In this document: piece after piece, positions 15,440 through 30,527 of the stretch
Numbering within the stretch: the stretch's first letter is position 1
Layout of the letters: each line of letters begins with the position of its first letter
Assembly: GCA_903901045.1 (NCBI GenBank)
Contig: CAIUPP010000060.1
Location: 6,661-70,660, forward strand
Direction: 5' to 3'
From: an uncultured Planctomycetota bacterium
Lineage (GTDB): Bacteria > Planctomycetota > Brocadiia > CAIUPP01
DNA: 64,000 nt
Notes under the pieces: generated by a model
The model's database searches: none
What the model was told of the DNA's origin: nothing
Seen by the model: only the letters and a program-made list of their open reading frames with translations
Translations under genes and position numbers: made by a program

Positions 15440-16597
15440 ATGAAGCATTCGATATTGCGAAAAGCGACATCACACGTGACCAGCAGAGACCGTCTGCTGG
15501 TCACGTGGTCGTTCCGTGAGCCTGACCGCGTGCCCGTCGAGTTGGAGAACACCGAAGAAGTGCGCCGGCATCCGGCGACTCGGCGATTATGTGAATTCGC
15601 AGATCGGGAGGCGGATAACTTCATCTTTGTCGCTGCGGCGGATTGGGGATTCTTCGGGCTTCAGGCGGTGTCGGCGGAAGAAGTCATCGAGGAGGCGCGG
15701 GGACGGTTTGTCCGCAAGCGGCTGACGTACCGGACCTCAGTCGGAGACTTCTGCCGCATTACGCGGCATCCGTGTGATGTGGCTGACCCGGCGGATTTCT
15801 ATTGGGAACAGCGGTTCATTCGGACCCGTGAGGACATGGACCGGTTGGCTAGTGCGCCAAAAAGCGCCCTTCGTGTGCTTCATCGGGAGTATGCAGAGGC
15901 GGATGCCCGGGTTGGCAGTCGGGGAGTCCCAATTAGCGGGCTGGCGCACCCGTTGGGCAGTTTGGTTCGCATGGCCGATACGGAGTCGGTCTACGGTTGG
16001 CTGGCGACGGAGCCGGCGCTGATCCATAGGTTTCTTGATCGCTGCTATGGGCAGCAGGTAGCAGTCATTGAAGAAATGGGACGTGTCGGGATGCGGCCCT
16101 CATTTATCACGTGGGCACATGAAATGCTCATCCCTCCGTGGATGAGTCCGAGGATGTTTGACGAGTTTGTCTTCCCTTACGACAAGCGGCTCAACGATGC
16201 CATTCATCGGATTGGCGGACGCATGCGCATGCATTGCCACGGCTCCTGCATGAACTTTCTGGAGAAGTTTGCGGATATGGGTGTGGATTCCATCGAGCCG
16301 CTGGAACCGTCCCCATACGGCGATGTAGACTTGGCGGACGCCAAGCGGCGGGTGGGGGATCGAATGCTTCTTTCGGGTAACATCCCTTCCCAGAAGTTTC
16401 CATTCATGTCGCGAAAAGAAGTCCAGGAGTGCGTGAAGGAGGCTATCGCGGCGGCGGCAGGCCACGGTGGGTTCACCCTGCGTACCACAGGGGGCGGACT
16501 CGGAGCGGGAGACTTGGCGGAACCGGCGCTGGCAGGCAAAATGATTGAGAACTACGAGGCGTTCATCGATGCCGCGCTGGAATATGGCACCTATTGA
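15440..16597 (+). CDS. URO-D/MtaA-like family protein (possible Zn-dependent methyltransferase-like)
   Basis: N-terminal '...DRVPV' and 'MRMHCHGSCMNFLEKFADMGVDSIEPLEP' with a His-x-Cys motif, as in the MtaA/URO-D family. Confidence 0.7.
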   Translation: MKHSILRKATSHVTSRDRLLVTWSFREPDRVPVELENTEEVRRHPATRRLCEFADREADNFIFVAAADWGFFGLQAVSAEEVIEEARGRFVRKRLTYRTSVGDFCRITRHPCDVADPADFYWEQRFIRTREDMDRLASAPKSALRVLHREYAEADARVGSRGVPISGLAHPLGSLVRMADTESVYGWLATEPALIHRFLDRCYGQQVAVIEEMGRVGMRPSFITWAHEMLIPPWMSPRMFDEFVFPYDKRLNDAIHRIGGRMRMHCHGSCMNFLEKFADMGVDSIEPLEPSPYGDVDLADAKRRVGDRMLLSGNIPSQKFPFMSRKEVQECVKEAIAAAAGHGGFTLRTTGGGLGAGDLAEPALAGKMIENYEAFIDAALEYGTY

Positions 16598-16612
16598 TGG
16601 GAGTAGTGAAAA

Positions 16613-18019
16613 GTGAAGCGAGTGAAGATCGTCTTCATCGGAGCAGGGTCGGTCGTCTTTGGTCGCAATGTCCTTGCCGACATTCTTTGGCATCCGGCGT
16701 TGAAGGAAGCCGACCTTGTCCTGGTGGATATTGACGCTGAGCGTCTTAGCACTGCTGAGAGAATGACTCACATTGTGAACGAGCAGTTGGGCGCTGGGGC
16801 CCGCATCACCGCCACTAAGAATCGCCGCCTTGCCTTGGAAGGGGCGGATTTTGTAATCAATGCCATCGGGGTTGGCGGGCACGCGGCAGCGAAGATTGAC
16901 TTGGAACTTCCCGCGCGCTTTGGGGTTAGACAGATTGTCGGCGACACCCTTGGCGTCGGCGGCATCTTTCGCGCCGTCCGTTCCGTTCCCGAACTCCTGG
17001 CAATCTGTTCGGATATGGAGGAACTGTGCCCGCGCGCGTTGTTGCTGAATTGCAGCAATCCCATGGCTATGCACTGTCTGGCCGTTGAGCGCACTACAAA
17101 GGTCAGACATGTGGGGCTATGCCACGGCGTGCAGAACACCGCACAGACCATGCGTCTGATCATTGCAATGGCACAGGAACCTGCCGCCGCAGTCCGTCGG
17201 CACTTCCAACGTCCATGGAATTCCCCCGAAAGGGTCCGGGAGTGGCAGGCGTGGTTGAAGAAGAGCTTCGATCCTGGCTTGAGCTATACGTGCGCCGGGA
17301 TCAACCACATGGGTTTCTTCCTTCGATTCCGGTCGAAGGGCAGAGACCTCTACCCGCTCTTGTGGAAAGCCATGGACATCCCTCATATCTGGCGTTTTGA
17401 CCCCGTGCGCTTTGAGTTGTTCAAACGTTTCGGGTACTTCATGACTGAAACCAGTGGCCACATGGCCGAGTATGTCCCGTATTTCCTGAAGAATGAACGT
17501 GAGATCCGTCGCTGCTGCCTGCGTCCTGCGGTGTACCTTGAGACTTGTCGGCGACAGGACAAGGAATACTGCAACCTACGCCGCTTGATGAAGAGCGGAC
17601 AACCCATCGTGCCAATGCCGTACGAACCGAGCGTCGAATATGCCGCACGCATTATCAATGCCTCCGTCGAGAATGTGCCATATGTGTTCAACGGAAACGT
17701 GCATAATGAGGGCGGGCGCTGGCTCCCCAACTTGCCCGGCGACTGCTGCGTGGAAGTTCCCTGCGTGGTGGACAAGAAGGGGCCTCGGCCGCTTGCGCCC
17801 ATTGATCTGCCCCCGCAGTGTGCCGCGCTGATTCGCACCAATGTGAACGTGCAGGACCTTGCCGTTCGAGGCATTCTGGAAGGGGACCGGCGTTACATTC
17901 ACCAAGCGATAATGCTCGATCCGAACACCGCCAGTTCCCTTACCTTGCCAGAGATTGACCGGGTCGTGGAGGCGATGTTCAAGGCGCATGCAAAGCGGTT
18001 GCCGCGCAATCTGCGATAA
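16613..18019 (+). CDS. glycoside hydrolase family 4 (NAD+/Mn2+-dependent glycosidase)
   Basis: 'MKRVKIVFIGAGSVVFG' Rossmann N-terminus plus the 'HVGLCHGVQN' GH4 catalytic motif. GTG start with a GGAG RBS. Confidence 0.8.
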   Translation: MKRVKIVFIGAGSVVFGRNVLADILWHPALKEADLVLVDIDAERLSTAERMTHIVNEQLGAGARITATKNRRLALEGADFVINAIGVGGHAAAKIDLELPARFGVRQIVGDTLGVGGIFRAVRSVPELLAICSDMEELCPRALLLNCSNPMAMHCLAVERTTKVRHVGLCHGVQNTAQTMRLIIAMAQEPAAAVRRHFQRPWNSPERVREWQAWLKKSFDPGLSYTCAGINHMGFFLRFRSKGRDLYPLLWKAMDIPHIWRFDPVRFELFKRFGYFMTETSGHMAEYVPYFLKNEREIRRCCLRPAVYLETCRRQDKEYCNLRRLMKSGQPIVPMPYEPSVEYAARIINASVENVPYVFNGNVHNEGGRWLPNLPGDCCVEVPCVVDKKGPRPLAPIDLPPQCAALIRTNVNVQDLAVRGILEGDRRYIHQAIMLDPNTASSLTLPEIDRVVEAMFKAHAKRLPRNLR

Positions 18020-18048
18020 CAACCATGACAAGGAAGCGAGACGAAATC

Positions 18049-20418
18049 ATGAAGGCAGTCCTCACCCTGTGCGGCGTAGTGCTTCTCTGCGGCGCTTGCT
18101 CCATCTCGAAACCTGCTCTTGCCGCGGTGGCACCCGTCAACAGCGATCTGAACCCCGTCTCTTTCCATGAGGCGCCTCAGCACCCTCCCGTGGCGCTCAT
18201 CGGTCCCGGTGGGACGGTCAAAATCGTCTTGTTGCCTGGCGCATCTCACACTTTGCTCGCGGCCGTCAATGATTTGGCCGATTGTGTCCAGAAAGCCACT
18301 GGAGCGCGAGCGGAAATCTCGGCCGGTCCGGTCAAAGGTCCGGCCATCTTTGTAGGCGATAGCGCGGAGGCGATGGGGGCAGGCTTGGTTGGTTCGAAGA
18401 TGCCCATCGAGGGGTTTGCAATCAAGACCGCTACGGACCGTGTATACATCGTGGGCAATGACAGCCTGATCGACCCGGCGGCCGACCTGCGGTCTGAAGG
18501 AACGGCTTGGGGAATTTACGAGTTCTGTGAGCGATTTCTGGACGTGCGTTGGTACTGGCCGGACGCACTTGGCGTCAGTATTTCGAAACGCGCCGATCTG
18601 ACCATCGCACCAGTATGGCTGAGTGACGCACCGGTCTTCCGGAAGCGCGAAATGTGGCCCTCGGGCGGCAGACGCGTGGCGCCTGCCGATGTGGAGTCTC
18701 TGCACCGCCGGCTGCGCTCGGTGGACACTTGGCCAATTCACCTGCGTGTCCATGCGCCACACGATTGGTCCACTCTGTATAAAGACACCCGGCCTGGAAT
18801 TTTCCAGAAGCGCTCGGACGGCAAGCGAGACTTCGACATGCTTTGCTACGGCAATCCGCAGACGCTGCAAACCTATCTGGAACAGATTGAACGGCAGTCC
18901 AAACCCGGAGTGCAGGTGGATGAGAACGAGCGCATTGTGGACGGGCATGCGGTCACGGTATCGCCGAACGACATGTCCGTTGCATGCACATGCGAATATT
19001 GCCGCGCTCTTTGGGACAAGGACGGAGGGCAATACGGTACGGCGTCGCGGGGTATGGCCACGTTCGTTGCGAAGCTGGCCGGCGAGGTCAAGAAGCGCTG
19101 GCCGGACATGACCATTATTTACCTGCCCTATAAGAACTACACAAAAGCCCCTGCGGGCATCACCTTTCCTGACAATGTTGAAGTGCAAATATGCGGCATG
19201 CCCGGTCTGGCACAGTATAAGGAACCCGCCATCAATGCCTCCGAGCAAGCGAACATTGACGCATGGAAGAACCTGAGCAGGAGGAAGATCCAGAACTGGC
19301 ACTATTCCTGCTGGCCGGAGGATCAAACGGACGCGGTATACCTGTTCCCGCACACGATACAGGCGCACTACCTCGCCAATCGAGACAAGACGACCGGCTC
19401 GTTCGTCAACGGCGTTGCGAATCACTGGCCCCGGCAGCATATCAGTTTGTATGTCTGGCTCAAGGTCTTGTGGAACCCCGATTTCAACGTGGACTTTGCG
19501 ATTGATGAATACTGCCGGCGGATGTATGGCCCGGCCGCGGGGACTATGCGCGAACTGGCCCGCATGCAGATTGACGGATGGGAAAACAGCCGCTGGCCCG
19601 GCGGCGTATTCTCGGCCAGGGGGGTCTATGAAAGCAGCTATCCGCGCGAGCAGGTTGTTCGGATGGAAGAGCTGCTCAAGAAGGCCCGAGTTGAAGCGGC
19701 GGGGGACTCGCTGGCGACTGAGCGGATAGAGTACTACGCGACTCCGTTTCCAGCCTTTTTCAAAGAGTCGAAAGACTACGCAGAAGGTACGGGTCGAAGA
19801 ACCCTTAGCGCGTACCAAGTGGCCGAAGACCCGGTGTTGGACGGACGTTTGGACAAGCCTTGCTGGCAGGGCATAGAGCCTTTGCTTTTCGTGAAGGCGC
19901 TGGACCAGCAGGATCCGCAACCCAAGTATCCGACGGAGTTGAAAGCCGTCTGGTCGCGGCAGGGGATCACATTCGGGTTCCGTATGTCGGAGCCGACGCC
20001 TGAGAAGCTCGCGCGCGACATCGGAGCGGACAGCCGCGACGCGTCACTGATCTGGTGGAACGACAATGTGGAACTGTTCCTCGACGTGGTCGGGGAACGC
20101 ACGGACTACTATCAGTTCATCGTTAACCCCAACGGCGCCATCTATGACAGCCACGGGAAGGAGATTAGCTGGACGGCGGAAGGGGCGAAGTCAGCCATCT
20201 ATCTTGGCAAGGACTTCTGGTCAATGGAAGTGTTCATCCCCTACAAGGCGTTTAACCGGGTGACACTCCCGGCGACGGGCATCCAGTGGTTCGGCAATTT
20301 TACGCGTCACCGCGTAACAGACCGAAGTGATCGCGAGATGCAACGGCTCAACACCACTTTCGCTGGACCGAGTAATAACCCCAACGCCTTCGGTCCCATC
20401 CGGTTTGTCGAGCGCTAA
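18049..20418 (+). CDS. DUF4838-like secreted lipoprotein with a C-terminal CBM9/DOMON-like carbohydrate-binding domain
   Basis: Signal/lipobox 'MKAVLTLCGVVLLCGAC'. The C-terminal 'DGRLDKPCWQGIEPLLF...WWNDNVELFLD' is CBM9-like. Second ATG chosen as start because it has an AGGAAG RBS. Confidence 0.7.
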   Translation: MKAVLTLCGVVLLCGACSISKPALAAVAPVNSDLNPVSFHEAPQHPPVALIGPGGTVKIVLLPGASHTLLAAVNDLADCVQKATGARAEISAGPVKGPAIFVGDSAEAMGAGLVGSKMPIEGFAIKTATDRVYIVGNDSLIDPAADLRSEGTAWGIYEFCERFLDVRWYWPDALGVSISKRADLTIAPVWLSDAPVFRKREMWPSGGRRVAPADVESLHRRLRSVDTWPIHLRVHAPHDWSTLYKDTRPGIFQKRSDGKRDFDMLCYGNPQTLQTYLEQIERQSKPGVQVDENERIVDGHAVTVSPNDMSVACTCEYCRALWDKDGGQYGTASRGMATFVAKLAGEVKKRWPDMTIIYLPYKNYTKAPAGITFPDNVEVQICGMPGLAQYKEPAINASEQANIDAWKNLSRRKIQNWHYSCWPEDQTDAVYLFPHTIQAHYLANRDKTTGSFVNGVANHWPRQHISLYVWLKVLWNPDFNVDFAIDEYCRRMYGPAAGTMRELARMQIDGWENSRWPGGVFSARGVYESSYPREQVVRMEELLKKARVEAAGDSLATERIEYYATPFPAFFKESKDYAEGTGRRTLSAYQVAEDPVLDGRLDKPCWQGIEPLLFVKALDQQDPQPKYPTELKAVWSRQGITFGFRMSEPTPEKLARDIGADSRDASLIWWNDNVELFLDVVGERTDYYQFIVNPNGAIYDSHGKEISWTAEGAKSAIYLGKDFWSMEVFIPYKAFNRVTLPATGIQWFGNFTRHRVTDRSDREMQRLNTTFAGPSNNPNAFGPIRFVER

Positions 20419-20429
20419 GGAATAACCAC

Positions 20430-21563
20430 ATGAGACGTATAAGAGTTGGGCACATCGGCTGGCTTTCCTGGGATGAAGGTCCGGAGTGCGAAACCGTTGC
20501 ATGGTGCGACGCAAACCAGCATAAGCTGAAACAGTCCGTGGCGGAACATCCCCAAGTGGCCACTTACACCGATTACCGCGACATGTTGCGTCACGCAGGC
20601 ATGGACGCCGTCGTCATCTCCACCCCCAACGAATTTCACGCCGAGCAGGCAATAGCTTTCCTCGACGCGGGGGTGGACGTCTTTCTTGAGAAGCCGATGG
20701 GCGTCAACAAGGCGGAGTGCGATGCTATCCTCCAGGCGGCTGCGCGAAGCGGACGGACGCTGGTCATAGACTTCGAGTTGCGTATCTCCCTTTTCTGCCG
20801 GCGCGTCCGGGCGTTGATCGAAAGCGGGGCCTACGGTGAACTGCGGCGCATTGAGTTCTTCCACCACCGCGGATGCTGGCTTGAGGAAGGGAATGGATGT
20901 TGGCGCGTCCGCCCGGAAAAGAGCGGCGGATTCTACTTCATGGAACCGATTCATGAGGTAGACCTCTTCCGTCTTTTGGGAGGTGAAGTCCGCGCTGTCC
21001 AAAGCACGTCCGGTTCCAACGTGCTGCCGCAGTATCAGTTCGAAGACAATGTCTGTTCGCATTTCTTCTTCGAAGGGGGCGCGCTCGGGACGATTGTCAC
21101 ATCGCATACCCACAGTGCATGGGCAGACAAAACGAGTAAATGGGGGGATTTGGGACATGACATGGCTCTGATAGTGACGCTCACCCAGGGATCCATCGGC
21201 GTGGACTTCATCCGACAGCGCATTCTGGTCAACCGGTTTGAGACGTATCCCGCCGGCACTGAGGGTGTGCGGGTGGTATTGGACCATGTCGAGGATCACG
21301 CCGCCGCTGGCTATATGGAATTCTGCCACGATATCGATGGCATGCGCCGCGAGTTCATTCGCCGCCTGGCGGAAGGTCTCCAGCCGGTGCAGGACGCGTT
21401 AGGCGCTTGGCGTACCCATCGGGTGTGTCTGGCCGCCGAACAGTCGCTCAAGGAGGACTTCCGCCGCGTCGCGGTGGATTATACTTTGCCTGAAGGATGT
21501 GAGAGTCTGTCAGCGCCTGCACCTGCGGCGCACACGCTTCTTTTTGGGAGGAAATCGCGATGA
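20430..21563 (+). CDS. Gfo/Idh/MocA family NAD(P)-dependent oxidoreductase
   Basis: 'IRVGHIGWLS...DAVVISTPNEFHAEQAIAFLDAGVDVFLEKPMG' Rossmann block typical of the Gfo/Idh/MocA family. Confidence 0.8.
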   Translation: MRRIRVGHIGWLSWDEGPECETVAWCDANQHKLKQSVAEHPQVATYTDYRDMLRHAGMDAVVISTPNEFHAEQAIAFLDAGVDVFLEKPMGVNKAECDAILQAAARSGRTLVIDFELRISLFCRRVRALIESGAYGELRRIEFFHHRGCWLEEGNGCWRVRPEKSGGFYFMEPIHEVDLFRLLGGEVRAVQSTSGSNVLPQYQFEDNVCSHFFFEGGALGTIVTSHTHSAWADKTSKWGDLGHDMALIVTLTQGSIGVDFIRQRILVNRFETYPAGTEGVRVVLDHVEDHAAAGYMEFCHDIDGMRREFIRRLAEGLQPVQDALGAWRTHRVCLAAEQSLKEDFRRVAVDYTLPEGCESLSAPAPAAHTLLFGRKSR

Positions 21564-22906
21564 GACGAGAATGGGCGGTCTGCATGGCGCTGGCGGGCGC
21601 ATTCCTTCTGAGTGCGGCCATTCCTGCGGCCAGGGCGCAGGGCGTTTCCGAAAAGGACCTCTGGCTGGCCTTCGATTTCGAGAATAGCATTGAACCCTCA
21701 GGCGGTAGCGCTAAGGGTCAGATGACAGTAACCTTCTCTCGTGAGACTCGCGGCGTCAGCCCGGAGGGCACGGAGTGCGCCGCGAACGGGCCACGTTTCG
21801 TGAAGGGATTCCAGGGGCGCGGCCTATATATGGGAGGGGAGTCTCGCAATCTCCTCAAGCCCGAGTTGGCCGACATGGAATTCCCAGCGGGTAAGGTTGA
21901 AGGCGTTGATGTGCTTGAGGGGGCAGCCATCGAACAGGTCAAGACCGACGACGCGTGGTTCGGCGAAACATGCTTGAAGGTGCAGTCCAGCAAGAAGCTC
22001 GGCAGCGGCGTCTCGTTCCCAATCACCGTTTCCGGCGGCGGTTTCTACGTGTTCTCGCTCCATGTGCGCGGACAGGGGCAACTGGCGCTGAGGGTCGTCA
22101 AACCTGAAGGCGCCGCCTGGACCGTCGGACCGGAGAAGTCCGTTTCCTGTTCCAGCAATTGGTCGCGCCATGCGGTGTGGGTCTATGCCACCGATACGGT
22201 CTCCACCAGTGTCACTCTGGCCACCAATGCTGGCGAACGCAGCGAGTTCTTTGTGGACGGAGTCCAGTTGGAGAAGCGAGAAAAGGTAATGGGTTTCGCT
22301 TTCCCAGAAAAGAATGAGTACCCCTATGGCAAGGAATTGTCCCCGGGACCGTGGACGCCGGGGCGTCAGAAGAGCGCGGGGGATTTCTTCTGCGTTCGTT
22401 GGGACCAGAAGTTCATGTTTCCTATCGCCGAGGGCAGCTACAGCCTCTGGTTTAAACCTTGTTTTGCCCGAGGAGACTGCGAGTACCACTCAATCATCGA
22501 GCGCTACTATCAGTGGAGCAATCTGGCCTGCTGGCCCTATTGCCAACTCAATTTCTTTCGCGGGAAGAACTCTGCCGAACACGACCAGCGCAGCGACATG
22601 GGCCAGGTGGAAGTTCGGCGGCCGGAAGCGTTTGCTCAGGACCAATGGTGTTTGCTGACGGTGACGTGGAGCAACGCCGAGCGGAAGTCCGCTCTCTATT
22701 TCAACGGCGAGTTGATCGGCCAAACTCTCAGCATGTGTGACAGCACGTATGCGAATGGCTTCATGGGCATCGGTAATGACGGCACGAGTCCATCCAACAC
22801 CAATGGAGTCCTTGACAACATCCGAATATACTCCCGCGCACTGGCGGCCGATGAGATCAAGAAGGAATACGAAGCCGGCATGACACGTTTGAAAGAGGGG
22901 AAATGA
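21560..22906 (+). CDS. secreted concanavalin-A-like lectin / LamG-domain protein
   Basis: Signal peptide 'MRREWAVCMALAGAFLLSAAIPAARAQG'. The C-terminal 'GVLDNIRIYSRALAADEIKKEY' is a LamG-type motif. ATGA start/stop overlap with the upstream gene. Confidence 0.7.
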   Translation: MRREWAVCMALAGAFLLSAAIPAARAQGVSEKDLWLAFDFENSIEPSGGSAKGQMTVTFSRETRGVSPEGTECAANGPRFVKGFQGRGLYMGGESRNLLKPELADMEFPAGKVEGVDVLEGAAIEQVKTDDAWFGETCLKVQSSKKLGSGVSFPITVSGGGFYVFSLHVRGQGQLALRVVKPEGAAWTVGPEKSVSCSSNWSRHAVWVYATDTVSTSVTLATNAGERSEFFVDGVQLEKREKVMGFAFPEKNEYPYGKELSPGPWTPGRQKSAGDFFCVRWDQKFMFPIAEGSYSLWFKPCFARGDCEYHSIIERYYQWSNLACWPYCQLNFFRGKNSAEHDQRSDMGQVEVRRPEAFAQDQWCLLTVTWSNAERKSALYFNGELIGQTLSMCDSTYANGFMGIGNDGTSPSNTNGVLDNIRIYSRALAADEIKKEYEAGMTRLKEGK

Positions 22907-22909
22907 GCA

Positions 22910-25900
22910 ATGAGGAATGCGCGGGTATTCCTGACTGTGTTGTGCCTTGTGTTCATGTCGGCAGGGGTTCCGGCCGCCGAACCGATGGGGGATCCCTCAG
23001 GTTATCTTCACGTCCTGGAAAAGGGCATTGTCACTCCGCATCGCATCATTGCCCAGCAATATGCCAAGGGCGGCCTCAAGGCGCTTTGTATTGTGCCCTT
23101 TAAGCTGGGGGCGCGTGAGGTGCTGGAAGTGGCCGAGCGGTTTCCATTCGAGTTTGAAGTCGTCACTGCCGCATCTCACGACAACATTGACTTCTCCACC
23201 GTTCACCATTTCAGTGAAACCGCCCAAGGGATGGGTGGAAGCCTGAAGGAAAAGAGGGAAGAACTTAAGCTTAAGCTCAAAGCTGACTACGACCTGATTG
23301 CTATTGGCAATTTTCAGTGGGAAACCTTGCCGGACGACGTTGTAAGCCTCATTCTCCAGAAGGTGGAGAATGGCACCGGGTTGGTCGTGACATATGATCC
23401 CGTGATTCCCGCTCCGGGTGACGGGCTGATCGTGTCCGACTTTGCCAATCAGCAGGACGACTATATTCTGAAAGAAACGCCCCTCGCGCATCTGGACGCG
23501 TTTCGCACCAGGAAGGCCGAGGAGATTGCGGGGCTCGTCCGGTGTTACAAGCTTGGCAAAGGAAGGATTCTATTCCTCCGCATCGGCAAGCCCTTCGCCT
23601 ACAATGGAGGCCACGCCTTTACTCCGATGGACGAACCTTCCTGTTTTGATCGGTGGGCCAACAACTACGAGTACTACATCTCCTTCTTTCTGAAAAGCGC
23701 GCTGTTTGCCGCGCGAAAAGAACCCGACGTGTTGTTCGACAAGCCGGAGATCAATGTATCCACTGGCGCGGCGCGCCTGCCGGTCTCGATCAAGGGCGAC
23801 GCGGCATTCCCGCTGGAGTGGACGCTGGTGGTTCGGGACGCTGAAGGCCGGCAAGAATCCACGGCCTCCGGGAAGTTGGCCTCTAAAGAGGACCGCGTTA
23901 TTGAGTACAAGTTGCCGCTGCTCACAATCGGCACCCATTTCCTTGACGTCACGCTCGTTCATGGGCGGCAGGTCGTGAATTGGGCGGGGTTTGGATTTGC
24001 CGTAGCGGGCGATTCACCCATCAGGGAGCTTGCGCTTGCCCGTGAACGGTTCGCTCCAGGGGAGGTCGTGACGGGCAAGCTTGTCTTCACTCAACGGCCC
24101 GAGACGTGCGTGGTTGAATTGGTGGACAACTGGGGCAGAATTGTTGCGCGCCAGTCGGATGCCGACCTTCGGAAGAACGGGGAATCTTTCGTCCTTGAGC
24201 CGGGGAACAACCCCTCTCTGCGATACCGTGTCCGCGCCCTGGCCGTGAACCCGAATCAAAAGGCGGAGAGCACCAAGTCCTTCTTCGTTAGCGACAACGG
24301 CCGCGGACGTTTTCAATCCTTGTACTGGGGGTCTTACCCGCCATGCTACCTTGGCGCCCTAGCAGCGCGGCGGCTCTATGATGCCGGCTGGCACGTTCGT
24401 TTCGGAGGGGCCGGCTGGATGTCGAACGCTTACACTGTCACAGAACCTGCGTGCCTGTTCGAGTTTGAACAGTTCGACGCGGACGCCAAAGTGGCGGAAA
24501 TGAAGGCGTCCGTTCGCCAGAAGATGAAGGAAACCGCCGGCGCACCTGCCTTCGCCTACTTCCTGGGAGATGAAACGATCATCGGTCGCACACTCGACTC
24601 CGGCATCAACTCGCCGGCACTGGCAAAGTTTCCGGCATACGTGGAGAGCCTCTACGGAAATATCGCCTCGCTCAACCAGCGGTGGGGAACGAAATATACA
24701 ACCTTTGCCGAGGTGAAGCCGAGTTGTCTGTCCGATGCCGTGGCGGCCGGCGCTCCGGGCCGATGGGTGGTCTTCCGCAAGTTCCTGTCCGAGGAGTTCT
24801 TCAAGGTGCACCTGGCTGCGCGAGATACGATTCGCGAATCCGATCCATCGGCACCGACCGGCATTGAGGGAACCTATCAGATTGAACCCGGGCAATGGTA
24901 CAACCCGCTCTCCCTCTATCGCGATTTGGGATTGTGGGGGCCATACCCGGATTGGCTTTGCAGTATGGTGCTTAAGTCCACGCGCGATCCCAGCAAACCA
25001 TACGGCTATTGGTTCGGCGGCTATCGCGACCGCTATAGCGGCGGAACGTACTACGGCCGGACCGCAGGGGAATACGTCTATTATCCCTGGAAACACATGA
25101 TGGATGGGGCCAATAGCCTGTGGTGGTTCTCCGAAGGTGGTATAGAGGGCATGCTGGACCTGAACCTGGATTTCACGCCTTACTACAAGGCATACAAGGA
25201 CGATGTGGAACTGGTTACCTATAGTCTCGGTCCGGCACTGATGGGGGCGCGGGCGCAACTCGACTCGGTCGCCGTGATCTACTCTCCGAGTTCAGTTATC
25301 GCCGCAGCCGCCGTGCTCCGGAACCAGGACGTTTACCAAACTCTCGGAGTGGATCTGGTCCATACGATGCAAGGGTGCGGCATTCAGCCGGCCATCGTGG
25401 ATGAGCAGGATGCTGCCACAGGCAAGGCCGACCTGCGCCAGTACAAAGTCATTGTCCTGCCTTACAACACGGCCATGTCCGACGCGCTCATCGGCAAACT
25501 GTCCGAAGCGGTTGAGAACGGCGGCACGCTGGTCGGAAGCATGGACGTCGGCTTCATGAACGAAAACGGAGACTATCGTACTCAGAGCCACCTCAACGAG
25601 ATTTTCGGCGTTACGCGTGACATCAATCCGGCTTGCCCTTCCAAGAAGACGCCTCTCAAGTGGCAAGGGGACCTCTGGGGTACGAACGTCCAATTGAACA
25701 TCCCGGAAGCAGTCGTCGGGGAGAGCATCAAGCTGACCACCGGCAAAGCGGTGATCGCCACCGGGCCGGTCTTCATCGCGAACCGCATCGGCAAGGGTGA
25801 GGCCATTCTCCTAAATTGCGTGCTGGGCGTGGGAGACCCGCGAAAACCCGACTCAACCGCTGCTGTCACGGTTTGGAAGGCTTTGTTCCGCCACGCCGGC

Positions 25901-26485
25901 GTTCAACCGCCGGTGAGCTTCGCCAAGGAGCCTGGAGACCGATCTTTGATTGAATTGTCCACATTCCAGAGCGGCGACGTGCTTATCGTAGGCCTTCAGA
26001 AGAACAAGCATTGGGACTTGGACAAGGAGTGCAGACTGAAGGTGGCCCTGGGACAGGCGTACACTGTGCGGAATCTGCTGACCGGCGAGAACCTTGGAGA
26101 GCGCGATCACTTGGATCCGACACTCCGTGGTCTTCGTGGTGCCTTTTTTGCGATGTTTCCGAAGCCGGAACTGGATCCCGAGATAAGCCTGGAACCCGTG
26201 AGCGTGAAACCGGGCCAGACGCTGCATGTGATGATTAGGAGTCAGCAGCAAAACGCCTTTCCTGACAGATACTCCGTACGCGTCTATCGCGTGGGCGACG
26301 CAGCCACGGCCGACTCCAACCATGGTGTGTGCAGTTTCTGGACATCTGCGGCGGTCAAGACTGGTCCCGAATGCAGCATGGCGGTGCCGGTGGCCTATAA
26401 CGACGCCCCTGGCCAGTACCGCCTCGTTCTTCGGCGGGACATGACCGGAGTGGAAAAAGAGTTCACGTTTGTGATCGCGCCGTGA
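22910..26485 (+). CDS. large secreted hypothetical protein (1191 aa) with a GH42-type trimerisation / class-I glutamine-amidotransferase-like domain; putative glycosidase
   Basis: Signal peptide 'MRNARVFLTVLCLVFMSAGVPAAEP'. 'QYKVIVLPYNTAMSDALIGKLSEAVENGGTLVG' resembles the beta-galactosidase trimerisation domain. Confidence 0.65.
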   Translation: MRNARVFLTVLCLVFMSAGVPAAEPMGDPSGYLHVLEKGIVTPHRIIAQQYAKGGLKALCIVPFKLGAREVLEVAERFPFEFEVVTAASHDNIDFSTVHHFSETAQGMGGSLKEKREELKLKLKADYDLIAIGNFQWETLPDDVVSLILQKVENGTGLVVTYDPVIPAPGDGLIVSDFANQQDDYILKETPLAHLDAFRTRKAEEIAGLVRCYKLGKGRILFLRIGKPFAYNGGHAFTPMDEPSCFDRWANNYEYYISFFLKSALFAARKEPDVLFDKPEINVSTGAARLPVSIKGDAAFPLEWTLVVRDAEGRQESTASGKLASKEDRVIEYKLPLLTIGTHFLDVTLVHGRQVVNWAGFGFAVAGDSPIRELALARERFAPGEVVTGKLVFTQRPETCVVELVDNWGRIVARQSDADLRKNGESFVLEPGNNPSLRYRVRALAVNPNQKAESTKSFFVSDNGRGRFQSLYWGSYPPCYLGALAARRLYDAGWHVRFGGAGWMSNAYTVTEPACLFEFEQFDADAKVAEMKASVRQKMKETAGAPAFAYFLGDETIIGRTLDSGINSPALAKFPAYVESLYGNIASLNQRWGTKYTTFAEVKPSCLSDAVAAGAPGRWVVFRKFLSEEFFKVHLAARDTIRESDPSAPTGIEGTYQIEPGQWYNPLSLYRDLGLWGPYPDWLCSMVLKSTRDPSKPYGYWFGGYRDRYSGGTYYGRTAGEYVYYPWKHMMDGANSLWWFSEGGIEGMLDLNLDFTPYYKAYKDDVELVTYSLGPALMGARAQLDSVAVIYSPSSVIAAAAVLRNQDVYQTLGVDLVHTMQGCGIQPAIVDEQDAATGKADLRQYKVIVLPYNTAMSDALIGKLSEAVENGGTLVGSMDVGFMNENGDYRTQSHLNEIFGVTRDINPACPSKKTPLKWQGDLWGTNVQLNIPEAVVGESIKLTTGKAVIATGPVFIANRIGKGEAILLNCVLGVGDPRKPDSTAAVTVWKALFRHAGVQPPVSFAKEPGDRSLIELSTFQSGDVLIVGLQKNKHWDLDKECRLKVALGQAYTVRNLLTGENLGERDHLDPTLRGLRGAFFAMFPKPELDPEISLEPVSVKPGQTLHVMIRSQQQNAFPDRYSVRVYRVGDAATADSNHGVCSFWTSAAVKTGPECSMAVPVAYNDAPGQYRLVLRRDMTGVEKEFTFVIAP

Positions 26486-27648
26486 GAGATGGTTCTGTGG
26501 GGAGCCCGTCCGTGCCCTTGACGCCAAAACAGCGCATGCTCAATGCCTACCGCGGCCTTCCTGTGGACGTTCGCCCGGTGGCCCCGGAGTTCTGGTACTA
26601 TTATCCAGCCAAAGTGCTTAGGGTGGATATGATTCAACTCCAACGCGAAGTTCCGTTCTGGTTCGCGTTGAAAACCACCTTCGAGAAATTCGGTTGTGAG
26701 GGATGGGGTACGGTGTGGTGCGGTCGTGAACAACCCAAACCGGCTTCGGAAACACACGAGTTCATTCAGGTCGCAGCGGATTCCTATGAACTGCGCTCGT
26801 GTGAGAGTTTCGCGGGCAGGACTTTCCGTTCCACGAGCCGCTATAGCAAGGCGGAGCCATCTTGGCAGGTCGAGTACCCCGTGAAGGACCCTTTTACGGA
26901 ACTCGACTGCTATTTCGACATGCGGGTTCAGCATGGTTGCACTCTGACTCAGGCAAAGGCCCTTGAGGCTCGCAACGCCGTTGGCGAGGCATTCCTTCTT
27001 GAATGCGTCCTGCCCGGTCAGTTCACGGACTTCCTGGCCTCAGCCATGGGGTTCGAAATGGCAGTCCAATACCTCATGACCGAGGAATCGGCTAAGTTGG
27101 AGAGTTACCAGAAACGCTACCGTGATTACGTATCGGAGACGACCGGTCTCTTGGCGGCCACGTTGCCGTTTGAGTCGTATTTCATGGGCTGCTCCTACTC
27201 CTGCGCGTCGCTTATGGGGCCACGATTGTGGCGGCAATGGGACGTGCCTATTGTGGCCGCCGCTGCGAGCGCGATCCACCGACACGGGAAATTAATGCAC
27301 CTGCACTATCACGGCAAGTCGTTGGAGAATGCTGCTGATCTCGCCAGCACAGGGGTGGATTGCGTTTGCCCATTCGAGCGTCCGCCCGGTGGCGATGTGG
27401 ACGGGCTGGAAGGCTTGCAGAGAACCCGGGCTCTGATTGGGGAAAAGCTCACATTCAACGGGAATGTGCATACGGTGGCGACGCTCATTCGTGGCACGCG
27501 CAATGATGTTCGGCGTGAAGTCGGTCAGATAAAGTCCGCCTTTGCCGATTCCCACCGGCTCATCATCGGTACGGGTGACCAAGTCGGACGCGAGACGCCT
27601 GAGGAGAATCTTCACGTGATGGTTGAGGCGGGCCATGAAGCTTCGTGA
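26482..27648 (+). CDS. URO-D/MtaA-like family protein
   Basis: 'LTPKQRMLNAYRGLPVDVRPVAP' N-terminus plus 'LMHLHYHGKSLENAADLASTGVDCVCPFERPP'. GTGA overlap with the upstream gene. Confidence 0.7.
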   Translation: MRDGSVGSPSVPLTPKQRMLNAYRGLPVDVRPVAPEFWYYYPAKVLRVDMIQLQREVPFWFALKTTFEKFGCEGWGTVWCGREQPKPASETHEFIQVAADSYELRSCESFAGRTFRSTSRYSKAEPSWQVEYPVKDPFTELDCYFDMRVQHGCTLTQAKALEARNAVGEAFLLECVLPGQFTDFLASAMGFEMAVQYLMTEESAKLESYQKRYRDYVSETTGLLAATLPFESYFMGCSYSCASLMGPRLWRQWDVPIVAAAASAIHRHGKLMHLHYHGKSLENAADLASTGVDCVCPFERPPGGDVDGLEGLQRTRALIGEKLTFNGNVHTVATLIRGTRNDVRREVGQIKSAFADSHRLIIGTGDQVGRETPEENLHVMVEAGHEAS

Positions 27649-27711
27649 GGGTCTGCTCCGGGCAGTTCGGCCCAATGACGGAGCGAGAGGACGCGCCAAA
27701 GGAGGCAAGAT

Positions 27712-28587
27712 ATGAAACTTGGTGTCAGTTCGTACAGTTTCAGCGGTGCGGTGCGCGCTGGAACGATGAAATTCATTGACGTCCCCGCAAAAGCCAGGGA
27801 GATGGGCTTTGACGTGGTGGAGTTCTCAACGTTGCGGCCGCCCGATGGGGAAACGTCGCTGAACTTCGCTCCGAAACTGCGCGAGGCAGCGGACAGGGCG
27901 GGGATCACGGTGGCGAACTACACTATCGGGGCCGACTTCATCAACGGCTCGGGTGGCGACTGGGCCAAAGAGGCAGAGCGGTTGAAGGATGAACTGCGCG
28001 TGGCCAAAATTCTCGGTGCGCCCAGCATGCGCCACGACGCCACGTCCGGATACTCCGCCGGCGATAAGGGAGCCAAAGGTTTCGATAATGCCCTGCCCAT
28101 TCTCATCAATGGCTGCCGCGCTGTCACTGAGTTCGCTGCCGATATGGGGATTCGGACGATGGTGGAGAACCACGGTTTCTTCTGCCAGGACAGTGAACGC
28201 GTAGAGAAGCTCATGAACGGCGTGAACCATCCCAACTTCGGCTGGCTGGTCGACATGGGCAACTTCTTGTGTGCCGACGAGAATCCAGCCCTCGCGGTCG
28301 GCCGCGCCATGCCCTATGCCTTCCATGTCCACGTCAAGGACTTCCACGTGAAGTCCGGTTGCCTTCCTGACCCCGGTCAGGGCTGGTTCCAATCGCGCGG
28401 GGGCAATTACCTGCGTGGTGCGATCATCGGCCATGGAGACGTGCCCATCATCCAGTGCCTCAAGGTCATGAAAAAGATCGGCTATGGTGGCGTGCTATCC
28501 ATCGAATTCGAGGGGATCGAAGAGACGCTGAAGGGGATACAGATCGGATTGGAGAACCTGCGGCGCTTCATTGCGACGGTCAACTAG
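27712..28587 (+). CDS. sugar phosphate isomerase/epimerase (xylose-isomerase-like TIM barrel)
   Basis: 'GFDVVEF', 'MVENHGFFCQDSERVEKLMNGVNHPNFGWLVDMGNF' and 'HVHVKDF' are hallmark AP-endonuclease-2/xylose-isomerase-like TIM-barrel motifs. Confidence 0.8.
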   Translation: MKLGVSSYSFSGAVRAGTMKFIDVPAKAREMGFDVVEFSTLRPPDGETSLNFAPKLREAADRAGITVANYTIGADFINGSGGDWAKEAERLKDELRVAKILGAPSMRHDATSGYSAGDKGAKGFDNALPILINGCRAVTEFAADMGIRTMVENHGFFCQDSERVEKLMNGVNHPNFGWLVDMGNFLCADENPALAVGRAMPYAFHVHVKDFHVKSGCLPDPGQGWFQSRGGNYLRGAIIGHGDVPIIQCLKVMKKIGYGGVLSIEFEGIEETLKGIQIGLENLRRFIATVN

Positions 28588-28744
28588 GTATGCAGCACGG
28601 TCGTTCGGCGTGGCGGCAACGTTCGTGAACATATGATCGGTGAAGCAGCGAAGGTACGCTAATAGGAGCGCGTGGGAAACATCGTTCCCATCGGGCCGGG
28701 CTTTCCGCACTTTGTCGGTGAAGTTTACCGAGGCAACACGCCCC

Positions 28745-29719
28745 ATGAGCAGCCGAGCGCAGACGATTACTTTCCGGACGCAGGAGTATGTCTCGAAACA
28801 ACATGGCGATGACCGCATTGACATGTATGTAACGGAGCCTGCCGGCGGCGTGAGACAAACGACCGGCTTCATGCTGCTGATCCATGGATGGGGAAACGAT
28901 GGGCGCGAGGACTATGCCGCGGAAAGTGAATGGTACGCCGATCGTTACGACCTCGTCGTGACGCGCGTGGAATACAGGCACTCTGGTCGCGAGGCGCACC
29001 ACCCGGCGGAAGGTCAGTCGTGGGACGTGCCATACGACTGGTCGAAACTGCAAACGATAGACTGCCTGCGGGCGGCCTGGAATACCCTGCTGCGCTATCC
29101 GGGATTGGACCGTTCGCGATTGTACCTCTGGGGCGGGTCGCAGGGGGGGCAGTTGGGGGCGCAGTGCATGATATTCGCGCCGCATCTTTGGGCGGCCACG
29201 GTGCTTGTCAGCGGGCTGTATATCCCCATGCCCCATACGGAGGCAGAACGGCTCGGATTCGCCATGGATGGCCGGGAAACAGGCCAACCGACAATGCATT
29301 GGGCCTGCGGCGATGGTCCCGAGATCACCGGGGCGGAACTCGACATACGCAATCCGTATCGGAACGCCCACCTTTTGCCGAAAGCGGTTCCTGTAACTCT
29401 TATCCACGGGACGATGGACTTGACCGTGGACATCAAGCACTCTATCTTCTTCTATGCCCGCCTGAAGGGGATGGGACGGAATGTGAGCTTCTTTGCCGTT
29501 CACGGCGGCGGCCATAGTCTCAGTGGCGCGGAATTTGAGGATGAGAACAACCGGTTCAAGGCGACAGTCAAATATGCCGACGTACTCTTGCGTGACGCGC
29601 GCCGTACACGGGTGGAGGTTCTGCCAGCCAAGCCGGTGCGCATCCCCGTTACGCGTGGGATTTATGAAGTGGCGTTCACTCAGGACGGGCCGACGCTGTC
29701 ATCCTTACTGCCCAATTGA
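28745..29719 (+). CDS. alpha/beta hydrolase, putative carbohydrate (acetyl) esterase
   Basis: 'LWGGSQGGQLG' nucleophile elbow (GxSxG) in an alpha/beta-hydrolase context. ATG at 28745 preferred over the upstream GTG at 28640. Confidence 0.65.
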   Translation: MSSRAQTITFRTQEYVSKQHGDDRIDMYVTEPAGGVRQTTGFMLLIHGWGNDGREDYAAESEWYADRYDLVVTRVEYRHSGREAHHPAEGQSWDVPYDWSKLQTIDCLRAAWNTLLRYPGLDRSRLYLWGGSQGGQLGAQCMIFAPHLWAATVLVSGLYIPMPHTEAERLGFAMDGRETGQPTMHWACGDGPEITGAELDIRNPYRNAHLLPKAVPVTLIHGTMDLTVDIKHSIFFYARLKGMGRNVSFFAVHGGGHSLSGAEFEDENNRFKATVKYADVLLRDARRTRVEVLPAKPVRIPVTRGIYEVAFTQDGPTLSSLLPN

Positions 29720-30527
29720 TGGGACACCGTCGAGCTATTGCAGCAAGTAGATGGTCATTTTGTGCTTGCATGACCCAGACATTGCCCTTCTCCGTGGTGC
29801 GGGGTTAGTTTCCTTATTCCTGCAGCGAAATGTCCGGCGTTCAATGTGTAGGCACATACCGATGGCGTCGGCCTGGCTGGCAATGTAGAGCGGCACGGTG
29901 ATTTGATGAGAGCTTTCTAGTTCGTTTGTGAAAGATTTGTGAAAGAATTGACCCGAATGCCGATGATCGTGGATGACATAGAATGACATAGGATGACAAC
30001 GAGTGATGATTGAACCATCAACGACAGAAGGCTTTACGATATATCTGCATAGAGGGCAAGAAGTTGTGAAGAACGCCATCCTCGAATCCCGCCCTCTCCG
30101 CCATATCCAGCGTATCACTGGAGAAGGGGCGGAGTGTTCGCCAGTGAGTCGAAGGCTGCCGGAATTCGGCTCATAGCACGATAGGCACTGCACCCCAGTA
30201 CCTCAAAGAAGAACCTCCTTCCCCCACGATCTCACACCCGCTGGCGTCGGCGGACGTTGGCGGTGCGGCATGTCATTCCACTGTTGCGAAAGCCGAGTAG
30301 TGTATCACTTGCGCGCGAAGTCATTCTGAGTCCGCCCGTTGGCGGACGAAGAATCTTTCGACAGGCGAACGGTTAGCGCTCCGAAAGACCCTTCGCTGCG
30401 AAAGTGATTCACTGCCGAAGTCAGGGATTGAATTTGCCGGCGCGTTTGATATGCTACGATGCGTCGCGACGGATATCCTCGAACGGGATACGGCGCCGTT
30501 CCACCGGGGTTTATGAAGGAGAGGACC
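29720..30527 (+). other. ~800-bp lower-GC non-coding region with tandem decamers and an extended hairpin (candidate regulatory region / structured 5' leader)
   Basis: Tandem 'TTGTGAAAGA' x2 (~29930-29955). Three tandem '(G)ATGACAYA' units (~29975-30005). Imperfect 12-bp hairpin 'ATTCTgaGTCCGCC-cgtt-GGCGGACgaAGAAT' (~30323-30358). Repeated 'CGAAAG' and 'GAAGTCA' units. No credible ORF. Confidence 0.4.

Follow-up and report, generated by a model that had tools for sequence, protein, structure and literature searches.

What kind of glycan chemistry is encoded by a tightly packed gene cluster of an uncultured Planctomycetota bacterium? In the window, that is, the whole 64,000-nt stretch of DNA analyzed here, positions 15440 to 29719 had been interpreted in a sequence-only reading as a system built on nonhydrolytic, oxidative chemistry and devoid of classical glycoside hydrolase (GH) families. 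Our analysis points to a conventional two-stage glycan-utilization operon of a Planctomycetota-like organism, extending from 7236 to 29719 and regulated by a GntR/periplasmic-binding-protein (PBP)-type sugar sensor, a reading to which we assign a probability of about 0.58.

The block itself consists of nine co-directional plus-strand ORFs, not ten as originally counted, and their tight packing was described correctly: the successive gaps are 15, 5, 11, −4, 3, −4, 63, and 52 nt, hence below 70 nt. Two start-stop overlaps had been proposed. The ATGA at 21560, which overlaps the stop codon of the preceding oxidoreductase gene and has a GGGAGG Shine-Dalgarno sequence ∼8 nt upstream, stands, whereas the GTGA at 26482 is doubtful: gene callers place the start of this gene at 26512 (378 aa) on identical contigs, GGGGAG lies 8 nt upstream of that alternative start, and its use replaces the overlap by a 26-nt gap. 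GC3 is uniform among the cluster genes (0.66 to 0.76), and promoter- or terminator-like motifs within the block are no more common than in shuffled sequence.

The co-directional run begins upstream of the block with a gene (7236..8369, plus strand) for a regulator that combines a GntR helix-turn-helix (Pfam, 3.8e-12) with a PBP-like sugar-sensor domain (Peripla_BP_3, 9.3e-10). Earlier described as divergently placed, this gene is co-directional with the cluster and diverges solely from the gene of a 998-aa protein. The latter belongs to a divergent operon, possibly of the same regulon, which also includes a 403-aa gene and URO-D3 (2982..4061, minus strand), a third weak URO-D-like paralogue just under the Pfam gathering score (5.6e-5; 22.7 versus 23.9 bits). 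The regulator gene is followed on the plus strand by a 440-aa DUF1559/N-terminal-methylation pseudopilin-like gene (8413..9735; Pfam SBP_bac_10 and N_methyl, GspG-like N terminus in NCBIfam), whose counterparts adjoin homologous enzymes in three other loci (L003, L005, and L079). This gene, together with named homologues mainly from Planctomycetota metagenome-assembled genomes (MAGs), bears out the assignment to a carbohydrate-processing operon of a PVC-type organism. Next comes a gene (9920..15373, plus strand) for a 1,817-aa β-strand-repeat protein with an N-terminal signal peptide and, apart from that, just a weak PATR/autotransporter-repeat match; it is a putative adhesin or glycan-binding scaffold, which we infer to be part of the operon from its position only.

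Pfam and NCBIfam searches upheld nearly all of the earlier domain calls; the conclusion drawn from them fared differently. The gene at 18025..20418 (plus strand, start more likely at 18049) encodes a DUF4838 protein (PF16126; 4.2e-33, 115 bits) of GH163/GH185 type, GH20-like, with a C-terminal CBM9-like domain that scores below threshold (CBM9_1, 17.3 bits versus a gathering score of 23.4). In GH163 and GH185, the catalytic domain is DUF4838, acting by a retaining, substrate-assisted mechanism (PMC10570127), so the claim that the cluster contains no classical GH family is wrong. In the GH185 enzyme Sp_0475, the catalytic residues are Q174, H227, D309, and Y436, and in the GH163 enzyme BT1035 the catalytic domain is paired with a C-terminal carbohydrate-binding module (PMC10570127). 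The window protein likewise carries a C-terminal module, CBM9-like rather than F5/F8, and forms a separate family of ∼790 aa with >300 homologues, 120 listed matches of which show 51 to 64% identity. Homologues with names come mostly from Planctomycetota MAGs, and some carry N-terminal GH20b or GH67N matches.

A second GH-type enzyme is the predicted secreted, 1,191-aa GH42-fold protein (22910..26485, plus strand), in which an N-terminal α/β domain and β-sandwiches precede a GH42-like TIM barrel, a GH42M-like domain, and C-terminal β-sandwiches. Compared with GH42 β-galactosidases and α-L-arabinopyranosidases of clan GH-A, it conserves the Glu at the acid/base position yet is secreted and nearly twice as long (∼450 extra N-terminal residues plus the extra C-terminal sandwiches), shares 13 to 16% sequence identity with solved GH42 structures, and has D-E where GH42 has N-E. 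Clan GH-A nucleophiles sit on β7. On the predicted β7 strand of the GH42-like family, in contrast, no acidic residue is conserved, whereas one on the strand after a long helical insert, residue 653, is. In addition, the window copy lacks D621 and D877, which the family otherwise conserves, so this protein may not be a canonical hydrolase. Directly upstream lies the gene (21560..22906, plus strand) of a secreted protein of 448 aa whose C-terminal domain is of the concanavalin-like LamG type (Laminin_G_3, 2.9e-16). The three large secreted proteins thus include two of GH type, and the nonhydrolytic thesis is not borne out.

Signal peptides, as read from the sequence, are present on the DUF4838, LamG, 1,191-aa, and 1,817-aa proteins and absent from the remaining six products of the block, which we infer to be cytoplasmic. 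Among the latter is the GH4 enzyme (16613..18019, plus strand), a member of a redox-elimination glycosidase family that depends on NAD+ and Mn2+. With full-length N- and C-terminal domains (Pfam GH4, 8.4e-54; GH4C, 7.9e-51), the motifs GAGS (residues 10 to 13), SNP (148 to 150), and GLCH (168 to 171), and a score of 513.8 bits against the NCBIfam α-galactosidase model PRK15076 (cutoff, 486), it is an ordinary member of the MelA-like α-galactosidase subfamily, with no notable difference. The last gene of the block (28640..29719, plus strand) encodes an S9/PHB-depolymerase-like α/β-hydrolase esterase (Peptidase_S9, 1.4e-13; Abhydrolase_2, 1.3e-10) with a GGSQGG nucleophile elbow and a PHA-depolymerase-type match in NCBIfam. 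Of the two esterases initially attributed to the cluster, it is the one that belongs there; the other (33953 to 36043) is on the minus strand outside the block.

The oxidative proposal centered on a Gfo/Idh/MocA oxidoreductase and a xylose-isomerase-like TIM barrel, taken to be the pair used in 3-keto deglycosylation. The former (20430..21563, plus strand; Pfam) is NAD(P) dependent by family and carries the EKP motif, its best NCBIfam match being iolG, far under the cutoff. The TIM barrel (27712..28587, plus strand; AP_endonuc_2, 2.3e-30; weak IolE match) falls into a superfamily of metal-dependent sugar isomerases, epimerases, dehydratases, and lyases, its best PDB-sequence matches being Art22, 4ovx, MJ1311, and IolE. 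By our own reading of its sequence, residues in VENHG (E142), DMGN (D181), HVHVKD, and SIEFE would occupy the metal-ligand positions. Acting on imported oligosaccharides beside GH4, the two could in principle carry out C3 oxidation, 1,2-elimination, and hydration, as in the Gram-positive P2B11 system. We consider this unlikely. The same two superfamilies, the second annotated as "sugar phosphate isomerase," do serve the Bacteroides BT2156-2160, Alistipes AL1-5, and P2B11 clusters (bioRxiv 10.1101/2024.03.25.586180; PMC8121099), the P2B11 glucuronide-3-dehydrogenase (8tdi) is the third-best PDB match of the oxidoreductase (8e-19), and in another locus (L080), a nonorthologous Gfo-TIM pair immediately precedes a DUF4838 orthologue of 59% identity. 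However, the PDB matches are nondiagnostic, glucuronide-3-dehydrogenase and DgpA appearing among many unrelated Gfo enzymes of comparable score, with equal or better matches to unrelated dehydrogenases; against the NCBIfam models for glycoside- and disaccharide-3-dehydrogenases, the oxidoreductase reaches 50 and 23 bits (cutoffs, 750 and 650); and at E values up to 10, the TIM barrel shows no sequence match to the 3-keto-glucoside lyase of solved structure. Neither family models nor PDB sequence comparison thus groups the window proteins with the characterized enzymes. The AL and BT systems moreover include a DUF1080 protein, a second oxidoreductase, and export signals on the Gfo and TIM proteins (bioRxiv 10.1101/2024.03.25.586180), whereas in the window a single oxidoreductase is present, DUF1080 is absent, and neither the Gfo nor the TIM protein carries a Tat, Sec, or lipoprotein signal. 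The two genes are nonadjacent (given as six genes apart), and the 10.9 kb of the partly syntenic locus L003 contain no TIM gene. A Gfo-plus-TIM pairing is equally the IolG/IolE pattern of inositol catabolism.

Nor does a second TIM barrel (TIM2; 32429-33268, plus strand; best PDB match 3tva, 7e-41), also named in the sequence-only reading, restore the case. Pfam confirmed its domain and that of the second LamG protein (31636-32412, plus strand), and TIM2 weakly matches a 2-hydroxy-3-keto-glucal hydratase (2.5e-5), but both genes probably lie outside the unit because a break in composition separates them from it, with both on the GC-richer side (GC3 of 0.79 for LamG and 0.83 for TIM2).

Conservation of the gene neighborhood was partial. 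In one related lineage (L003), six genes recur in a different order: those of the oxidoreductase (59% identity to the window), DUF4838 (54 to 55%), GH42-like (42%), LamG (40%), and GntR/PBP (27%) proteins and a pseudopilin-like gene, with LamG again immediately upstream of the GH42-like gene. That locus covers 10.9 kb only, within which GH4, URO-D, TIM, and esterase genes are missing from the shared set. A further cluster (L005) contains GntR, CBM9-like, pseudopilin-like, GH42-like, GDSL esterase, and Gfo genes. The differing order might suggest that the block merely juxtaposes independent units (URO-D1-GH4; DUF4838; Gfo-LamG-GH42-like; URO-D2-TIM-esterase) in a CAZyme-rich region, as would the CAZyme-like genes scattered downstream, the failure of URO-D2 to follow the GH42-like gene in L003, L004, and L005, the mixed neighbors of URO-D1 relatives (GH4 in 0/59 loci), and the closest long-contig DUF4838 orthologue (L079), which stands without Gfo, TIM, or GH4. 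Against this view, which we find rather improbable, are the very tight spacing with one or two overlaps, the single sugar-sensor regulator at the head, the uniform composition with no convincing internal promoter or terminator found, and the recurrence of the Gfo, LamG, GH42-like, DUF4838, and GntR genes in the second lineage.

Also set in a context of glycan catabolism, as opposed to heme synthesis or methanogenesis, are the URO-D/MtaA-fold TIM barrels URO-D1 (15440..16597, plus strand; Pfam URO-D) and the divergent URO-D2 (26482..27648, plus strand, probable start at 26512; Pfam URO-D, 1.3e-14), which share 33% identity over 85 residues and score far under equivalog cutoffs. URO-D1 has an extra β-meander at residues 77 to 124 and an invariant H-C-H, in contrast to the H-x-C...C zinc-thiolate motif of MtaA, and the literature searched yielded no characterized member of its subfamily. 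That these proteins are corrinoid-dependent methyltransferases demethylating O-methylated sugars from the glycan, making this a methyl-sugar utilization locus, is highly improbable: although their best NCBIfam matches are MtaA/CmuA models (1.2e-14 and 6.7e-9), URO-D3 has H-C-C at the aligned position, and most occurrences of the family are in MAGs from typically anaerobic lineages, the scores are far under the cutoffs (54 versus 235 bits), URO-D1 departs from the MtaA motif, and neither the window nor the top families flanking 49 relatives include a corrinoid-binding protein, activase, or methyl-acceptor gene.

In the two-stage operon that we favor, the DUF4838-CBM9 protein, assigned with GH163 and GH185 to a GH20-like hexosaminidase superfamily, and the 1,191-aa enzyme, paired with the lectin-like LamG protein, would attack a complex glycan outside the cytoplasm, where the giant surface protein and the pseudopilin-like protein may assist. 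In the cytoplasm, GH4 would cleave imported α-galactosides by oxidation-elimination, the esterase would strip acyl groups, the oxidoreductase and TIM barrel would convert the freed sugars, and URO-D1 and URO-D2 would perform a sugar-modification step, probably metal dependent. With no transporter gene in 7236-33268, the gene set does not show how the two stages are connected. In PVC bacteria and other non-Bacteroidota, CAZyme gene clusters similarly place a sugar-sensor regulator at the head of a co-directional operon and mix secreted GH-type enzymes, lectin or carbohydrate-binding modules, an esterase, and cytoplasmic finishing enzymes. The locus differs from them in lacking a transporter and a SusC/D-type pair, in its three URO-D-fold proteins, and in drawing both large secreted enzymes from poorly characterized or uncharacterized branches. 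The remaining interest of the operon therefore lies in several uncharacterized enzyme families, among them the large family of ∼1,200-aa GH42-like proteins, whose predicted nucleophile strand carries no conserved acidic residue, and the conserved URO-D-like family.

The glycan-processing block is a CAZyme gene cluster, and we favor reading it, with a probability of roughly 0.6, as part of a conventional two-stage glycan-utilization operon that a sugar-sensing GntR/PBP regulator would control. Extracellularly, two hydrolase-type enzymes (a DUF4838-CBM9 protein, and a GH42-like protein together with its LamG neighbor) and surface proteins would attack a complex glycan; a cytoplasmic set of a GH4 alpha-galactosidase, an esterase, an oxidoreductase (Gfo), a TIM-barrel protein (TIM) and URO-D-like enzymes would finish and convert the products. 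No transporter gene was found in the operon.

ORF listing and translation gave nine same-strand genes at 15440-29719, not the ten counted in the sequence-only reading. All lie on the + strand: URO-D1 (15440-16597; 385 aa), GH4 (16613-18019; 468 aa), DUF4838-CBM9 (18025-20418; 797 aa), Gfo (20430-21563; 377 aa), the LamG protein LamG448 (21560-22906; 448 aa), the GH42-like gene (22910-26485; 1191 aa), URO-D2 (26482-27648; 388 aa), TIM (27712-28587; 291 aa) and the esterase (28640-29719; 359 aa), with successive spacings of 15, 5, 11, -4, 3, -4, 63 and 52 nt. Of the two overlaps claimed in the sequence-only reading, the ATGA one at 21560 is confirmed, and a GGGAGG Shine-Dalgarno sequence precedes it. 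The GTGA one at 26482 is in doubt: on identical contigs, gene callers choose 26512 (378 aa), where GGGGAG lies 8 nt upstream, and no such motif occupies that place before 26482. Nor is the regulator divergent from the cluster, as had been thought. It is co-directional, since the co-directional run begins upstream, with the regulator itself at 7236 (+), and continues through a DUF1559/N-methyl pseudopilin-like gene (8413-9735, +) and the gene of a secreted 1817-aa repeat protein (9920, +); it is divergent only from the gene of a 998-aa protein (4110-7106, - strand). This protein and a 403-aa protein (1743-2954, - strand), both cytoplasmic and transcribed divergently from the regulator, had no Pfam, NCBIfam or PDB sequence match, and exact copies of the 998-aa protein occur in a few metagenome assemblies only.

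Nearly all domain guesses (URO-D, GH4, DUF4838, CBM9-like, Gfo/Idh/MocA, LamG, TIM) were upheld by Pfam and NCBIfam, with Pfam URO-D matches of 61.6 and 54.5 bits as well as Gfo/Idh/MocA, Laminin_G_3, an AP_endonuc_2 TIM barrel, and an alpha/beta-hydrolase with a GGSQGG elbow. As read from the N-termini, signal peptides are present on the DUF4838, LamG448, 1191-aa and 1817-aa proteins and absent from URO-D1, URO-D2, GH4, Gfo, TIM and the esterase. Promoter-like and terminator-like motifs within the block numbered as expected from shuffled sequence, Rfam and tRNA scans of the window gave no match and no tRNA, and a repeat scan returned nothing bearing on the cluster.

Two of these proteins carry known glycoside hydrolase domains. 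The GH4 protein carries both Pfam domains at full length (PF02056, 182 bits; PF11975, 173 bits) and scores 513.8 bits against the NCBIfam alpha-galactosidase model NF011657 (PRK15076), above its cut-off of 486. GH4 enzymes have a GxGS dinucleotide motif near the N-terminus and a metal site formed by the Cys-His of GLCH; here, GAGS stands at residues 10-13, SNP at 148-150 and GLCH at 168-171. The protein is thus predicted to be an ordinary member of the MelA-like alpha-galactosidase subfamily. In the second protein, DUF4838 (PF16126) spans residues 197-508 with 115.3 bits against a gathering score of 26.6; the CBM9 match is sub-threshold in the window protein and clear in several orthologues. 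The view that DUF4838 was an unknown, in a cluster lacking ordinary glycoside hydrolases, does not hold, as this distantly GH20-like domain is catalytic in BT1035 (GH163, an endo-beta-N-acetylglucosaminidase acting on complex N-glycans) and in Sp_0475 (GH185, a 6-sulfo-GlcNAcase), where catalysis is retaining and substrate-assisted (PMC10570127). Many D, H, Y and Q residues are invariant among the orthologues within 200-480; in Sp_0475, the catalytic and oxazoline-stabilizing residues are Q174, H227, D309 and Y436 (PMC10570127). A PDB sequence search found no relative of the window protein, which is one of a large group of orthologues, ~780-800 aa long, with more than 300 homologues (51-64% identity among the 120 matches listed). 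Its named homologues come mostly from Planctomycetota MAGs, some with N-terminal GH20b or GH67N Pfam matches.

The 1191-aa protein had been described as of unknown fold, a description overturned by Pfam matches to GH42M (5e-12) and to part of the GH42 catalytic domain (1.6e-5), the combination of TIM barrel and GH42M domain that typifies GH42, and by a GH42-like predicted fold (AlphaFold model from ten sequences, of moderate confidence: pLDDT 72.7, pTM 0.71). Exhaustive phmmer searching retrieved 2023 cluster representatives with an E-value of 1e-3 or less, of which 410 reached 1e-30 or less; counted as 50%-identity clusters, the family numbers at least 410. Most representatives are 1150-1250 aa long and match over the full length, and only one is more than 30% identical to the window copy. 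For the catalytic pair of GH42, we looked for an acid/base Glu after beta4, in an N-E motif, and a nucleophile Glu after beta7. Across 124 aligned members, conservation of G553-D554-E555 is 91-96%, and E555 (94%) is placed at the GH42 acid/base position by the Pfam register. Position 653 is acidic in 96% of these members and lies on a strand other than the predicted beta7, and no conserved acid occurs among them on beta7 itself as placed by the moderate-confidence model (W701, G703, Y705). The window copy is also without the family-conserved D621 and D877. The predicted fold is thus GH42-like, and the protein may not be a canonical retaining enzyme of clan GH-A. Its N-terminal alpha/beta domain contains highly conserved residues (T-P-H at 42-44, R69, E73, R77, D128, G155 and G157), suggestive of a second functional site unrelated to the barrel. 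At another locus (L072, 20135-24173), a distant homologue (P0006; 21% identity) lies upstream of SIS, GatZ/KbaZ, PfkB and aldolase genes, with a DUF4832/GH42-like gene directly after it. These genes make up a tagatose/GalNAc-type catabolic set, a hint that some members of the family may use substrates of the galactose or galactosamine type.

The sequence-only reading had proposed an oxidative/eliminative depolymerization system, a proposal that found no specific support in the features of Gfo and TIM, in DUF1080, in the gene set or in export. Published 3-keto systems consist of a Tat-exported Gfo/Idh/MocA oxidase and a second Gfo reductase (bioRxiv 10.1101/2024.03.25.586180; PMC8121099), a "sugar phosphate isomerase" TIM-barrel 3-keto-beta-glucoside lyase and a DUF1080 lyase/hydratase (bioRxiv 10.1101/2024.03.25.586180), or, in the Gram-positive P2B11 variant, two isomerase-like genes flanking two oxidoreductases (bioRxiv 10.1101/2024.03.25.586180; PMC8121099). 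Whereas these systems have two oxidoreductases, there is one Gfo at 7236-33268; whereas the Gram-negative enzymes bear periplasmic export signals, Gfo and TIM have no N-terminal signal; and, unlike in the described gene sets, the two lie six genes apart. DUF1080 (PF06439) was absent from all ORFs of the window scanned with Pfam. Gfo scores 50.3 bits against NF058561 (cut-off 750) and 22.6 against NF058563 (cut-off 650), the NCBIfam models of BT_2158 and BT_2159, and so falls outside both glycoside 3-dehydrogenase families; its top NCBIfam match, iolG, reaches 84 bits where the model demands 355. In the PDB, a Bordetella dehydrogenase and dihydroxyphthalate dehydrogenase rank ahead of the glucuronide-3-dehydrogenase 8tdi (8e-19). 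We also rejected Gfo as a GH109-type NAD-glycosidase, as it shows neither a GH109 C-domain match nor a signal peptide.

TIM shares superfamily PF01261 with the 3-keto lyases. Its PDB matches are Art22, 4ovx, MJ1311 and IolE, and the solved 3-keto-glucoside lyase 8tcd, which was in the set searched, gave no match at E<=10; TIM does not group with 3-keto-glycoside 1,2-lyases of the AL1/BT1 type. As to C-glycoside deglycosylation (DgpA/DgpBC, CarA/CarBC), the DgpA entries match Gfo at 7.5e-13 to 4.6e-11, amid dozens of unrelated enzymes and within the generic Gfo range, and no named C-glycoside lyase, and hence no DgpB/C- or CarB/C-type partner, appeared among the PDB matches of TIM or of a second TIM barrel, TIM2 (32429-33268), which has a weak match (2.5e-5) to 2-hydroxy-3-keto-glucal hydratase. 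The literature on Art22 and on this hydratase added nothing informative. Since inositol catabolism likewise pairs a Gfo with a TIM barrel (IolG/IolE), the pairing is not diagnostic. A 3-keto route run by Gfo and TIM inside the cytoplasm is therefore unlikely, and on present evidence the locus adds no new oxidative depolymerization system.

Comparison with relatives recovers part of the proposed operon. A 10.9-kb contig (L003) carries P0001, the closest relative of the 1191-aa protein (42% identity), and unites six window genes in changed order: Gfo (59%), pseudopilin-like, LamG (40%), GH42-like, GntR/PBP (27%) and DUF4838 (54%). To this extent, the expected conserved synteny was borne out. A second locus (L005) has GntR, CBM9-like, pseudopilin-like, GH42-like, an unknown gene, a GDSL esterase and Gfo (28%), and remoter GH42-like homologues have unrelated neighbors. 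At DUF4838 orthologues, one locus (L080) contains a tight Gfo-TIM-DUF4838 operon and another (L079) neither Gfo nor TIM; the Gfo-TIM pair of L080 was rejected as an orthologue of the window pair. The ~380-aa genes following GH42-like homologues in L004 and L005 likewise proved not to be URO-D2 orthologues, none of which follows the GH42-like gene in L003, L004 or L005. The compared loci thus point to a conserved core of Gfo, LamG, GH42-like, DUF4838 and GntR, and nothing in them ties GH4, URO-D1, URO-D2, TIM or the esterase to it. A GTDB genome scan with a two-sequence alignment of the 1191-aa protein found no relative, and a metagenome scan found only two short contigs resembling the L003 lineage and no further loci, so the synteny rests on few loci. 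That the cluster is a mere juxtaposition of independent units would suit the unlinked genes, and sits poorly with six genes held together in L003; we regard it as quite improbable. A pseudopilin-like gene is found beside the GH42-like or the DUF4838 gene at each of four independent loci (window, 8413-9735; L003, 1502-2209; L005, 9228-9971; L079, 7979-8974). This recurrence may reflect chance, if the DUF1559/N-methyl family is very large in such genomes, or a real association.

Three URO-D/MtaA-superfamily paralogues lie within 27 kb: URO-D3 (2982-4061, - strand), URO-D1 (15440-16597, +) and URO-D2 (26482-27648, +). URO-D2 and URO-D3 are each 23% identical to URO-D1, and at the aligned motif position URO-D1 has HCH, URO-D2 HYH and URO-D3 HCC. 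Members of the URO-D1 family, 50-58% identical, occur in MAGs of Planctomycetota, Armatimonadota, Lentisphaerota, Omnitrophota, KSB1, Zipacnadia, Spirochaetota, Bacillota and Chloroflexota, and share an invariant H265-C266-H267, an AHEM..PPW segment and EPLEP. When all window proteins were searched by tblastn against 59 URO-D1 loci, GH4 was found at 0/59, Gfo at 2/59, DUF4838 at 7/59 and TIM at 0-1/59. Pfam analysis of 86 flanking ORFs gave varied neighbors: beta-helix, DegT, Amidohydro_2, other URO-D, DUF4838, GH2, Gfo, heparinase, GH172, GH109 and sulfatase. A fixed operon partner was rejected given this heterogeneity, and URO-D1 therefore has a general glycan-catabolic context only. In a Lentisphaerae MAG (L011, JABHEG010000016.1, 10001-14700), a URO-D1-family gene stands 38 nt ahead of a gene for a 1174-aa DUF4838 protein, a URO-D/DUF4838 pairing outside the window's lineage, with PcRGLX-like and GH123 proteins and a polysaccharide deacetylase nearby. 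A literature search for a tie between URO-D-like proteins and glycan use returned nothing relevant. Motif and context suggest a metal-dependent sugar-modifying role. Corrinoid-dependent sugar demethylation, to which membership in the URO-D/MtaA superfamily might point, is highly improbable, as the scores against the MtaA/CmuA model TIGR01463, 54.4 and 35.5 bits, stay far below its cut-off of 235.4 and domain scans of the window detected no B12-binding or corrinoid protein.

A lower-GC block, at least 31 kb long and extending to the window start, contains the entire cluster and ends in a sharp break at ~31600. Every gene at 821-31502 has a GC of 0.57-0.61 and a GC3 of 0.66-0.80, against 0.62-0.67 and 0.79-0.88 for those measured at 31636-61653 (TIM2, RND efflux, UDP-glucose dehydrogenase, ABC-F and others). 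TIM2, at a GC3 of 0.83 against 0.66-0.76 in cluster genes, lies beyond the break, which could mark a genomic island or an assembly join. A gene-free, lower-GC gap of 739 nt (29720-30458) separates the esterase from two small secreted paralogues (30459-30995, 178 aa; 31038-31502, 154 aa; 29% identity) without a family match. Farther on are more carbohydrate-related genes, for an S15/AXE1-like esterase (33953-36043, - strand), a GHL6 protein with a sub-threshold GH42M match (45325-47334, +), a Golvesin_C-domain protein (54332-55348, - strand) and a 1165-aa DUF5060 protein (55588-59085, - strand), and an HlyD-family/RND/OEP efflux operon (36237-42310) with a heavy-metal-binding domain on its first gene.

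PVC bacteria, Planctomycetota among them, play an important part in degrading complex glycans, and their degradative enzymes are mostly unannotated. A tentative three-part reading, each part able to stand alone, would be that the URO-D1 family may represent a new kind of metal-dependent sugar-modifying enzyme in the glycan catabolism of uncultured bacteria, that the ~1200-aa secreted GH42-fold family may be a new glycoside hydrolase (or non-Koshland) family with a LamG partner, and that the Gfo(+TIM) genes recurring beside DUF4838-CBM9 orthologues might provide an oxidative finishing step. The locus gives genomic context to three groups: an uncharacterized, Planctomycetota-dominated DUF4838-CBM9 branch of the GH163/GH185 superfamily, the large and uncharacterized secreted family of ~1200-aa GH42-like proteins, and a strongly conserved URO-D-fold family without a known role in sugar metabolism. 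Characterizing any one of them could bring to light a new sugar-modifying activity or add a family to CAZy.
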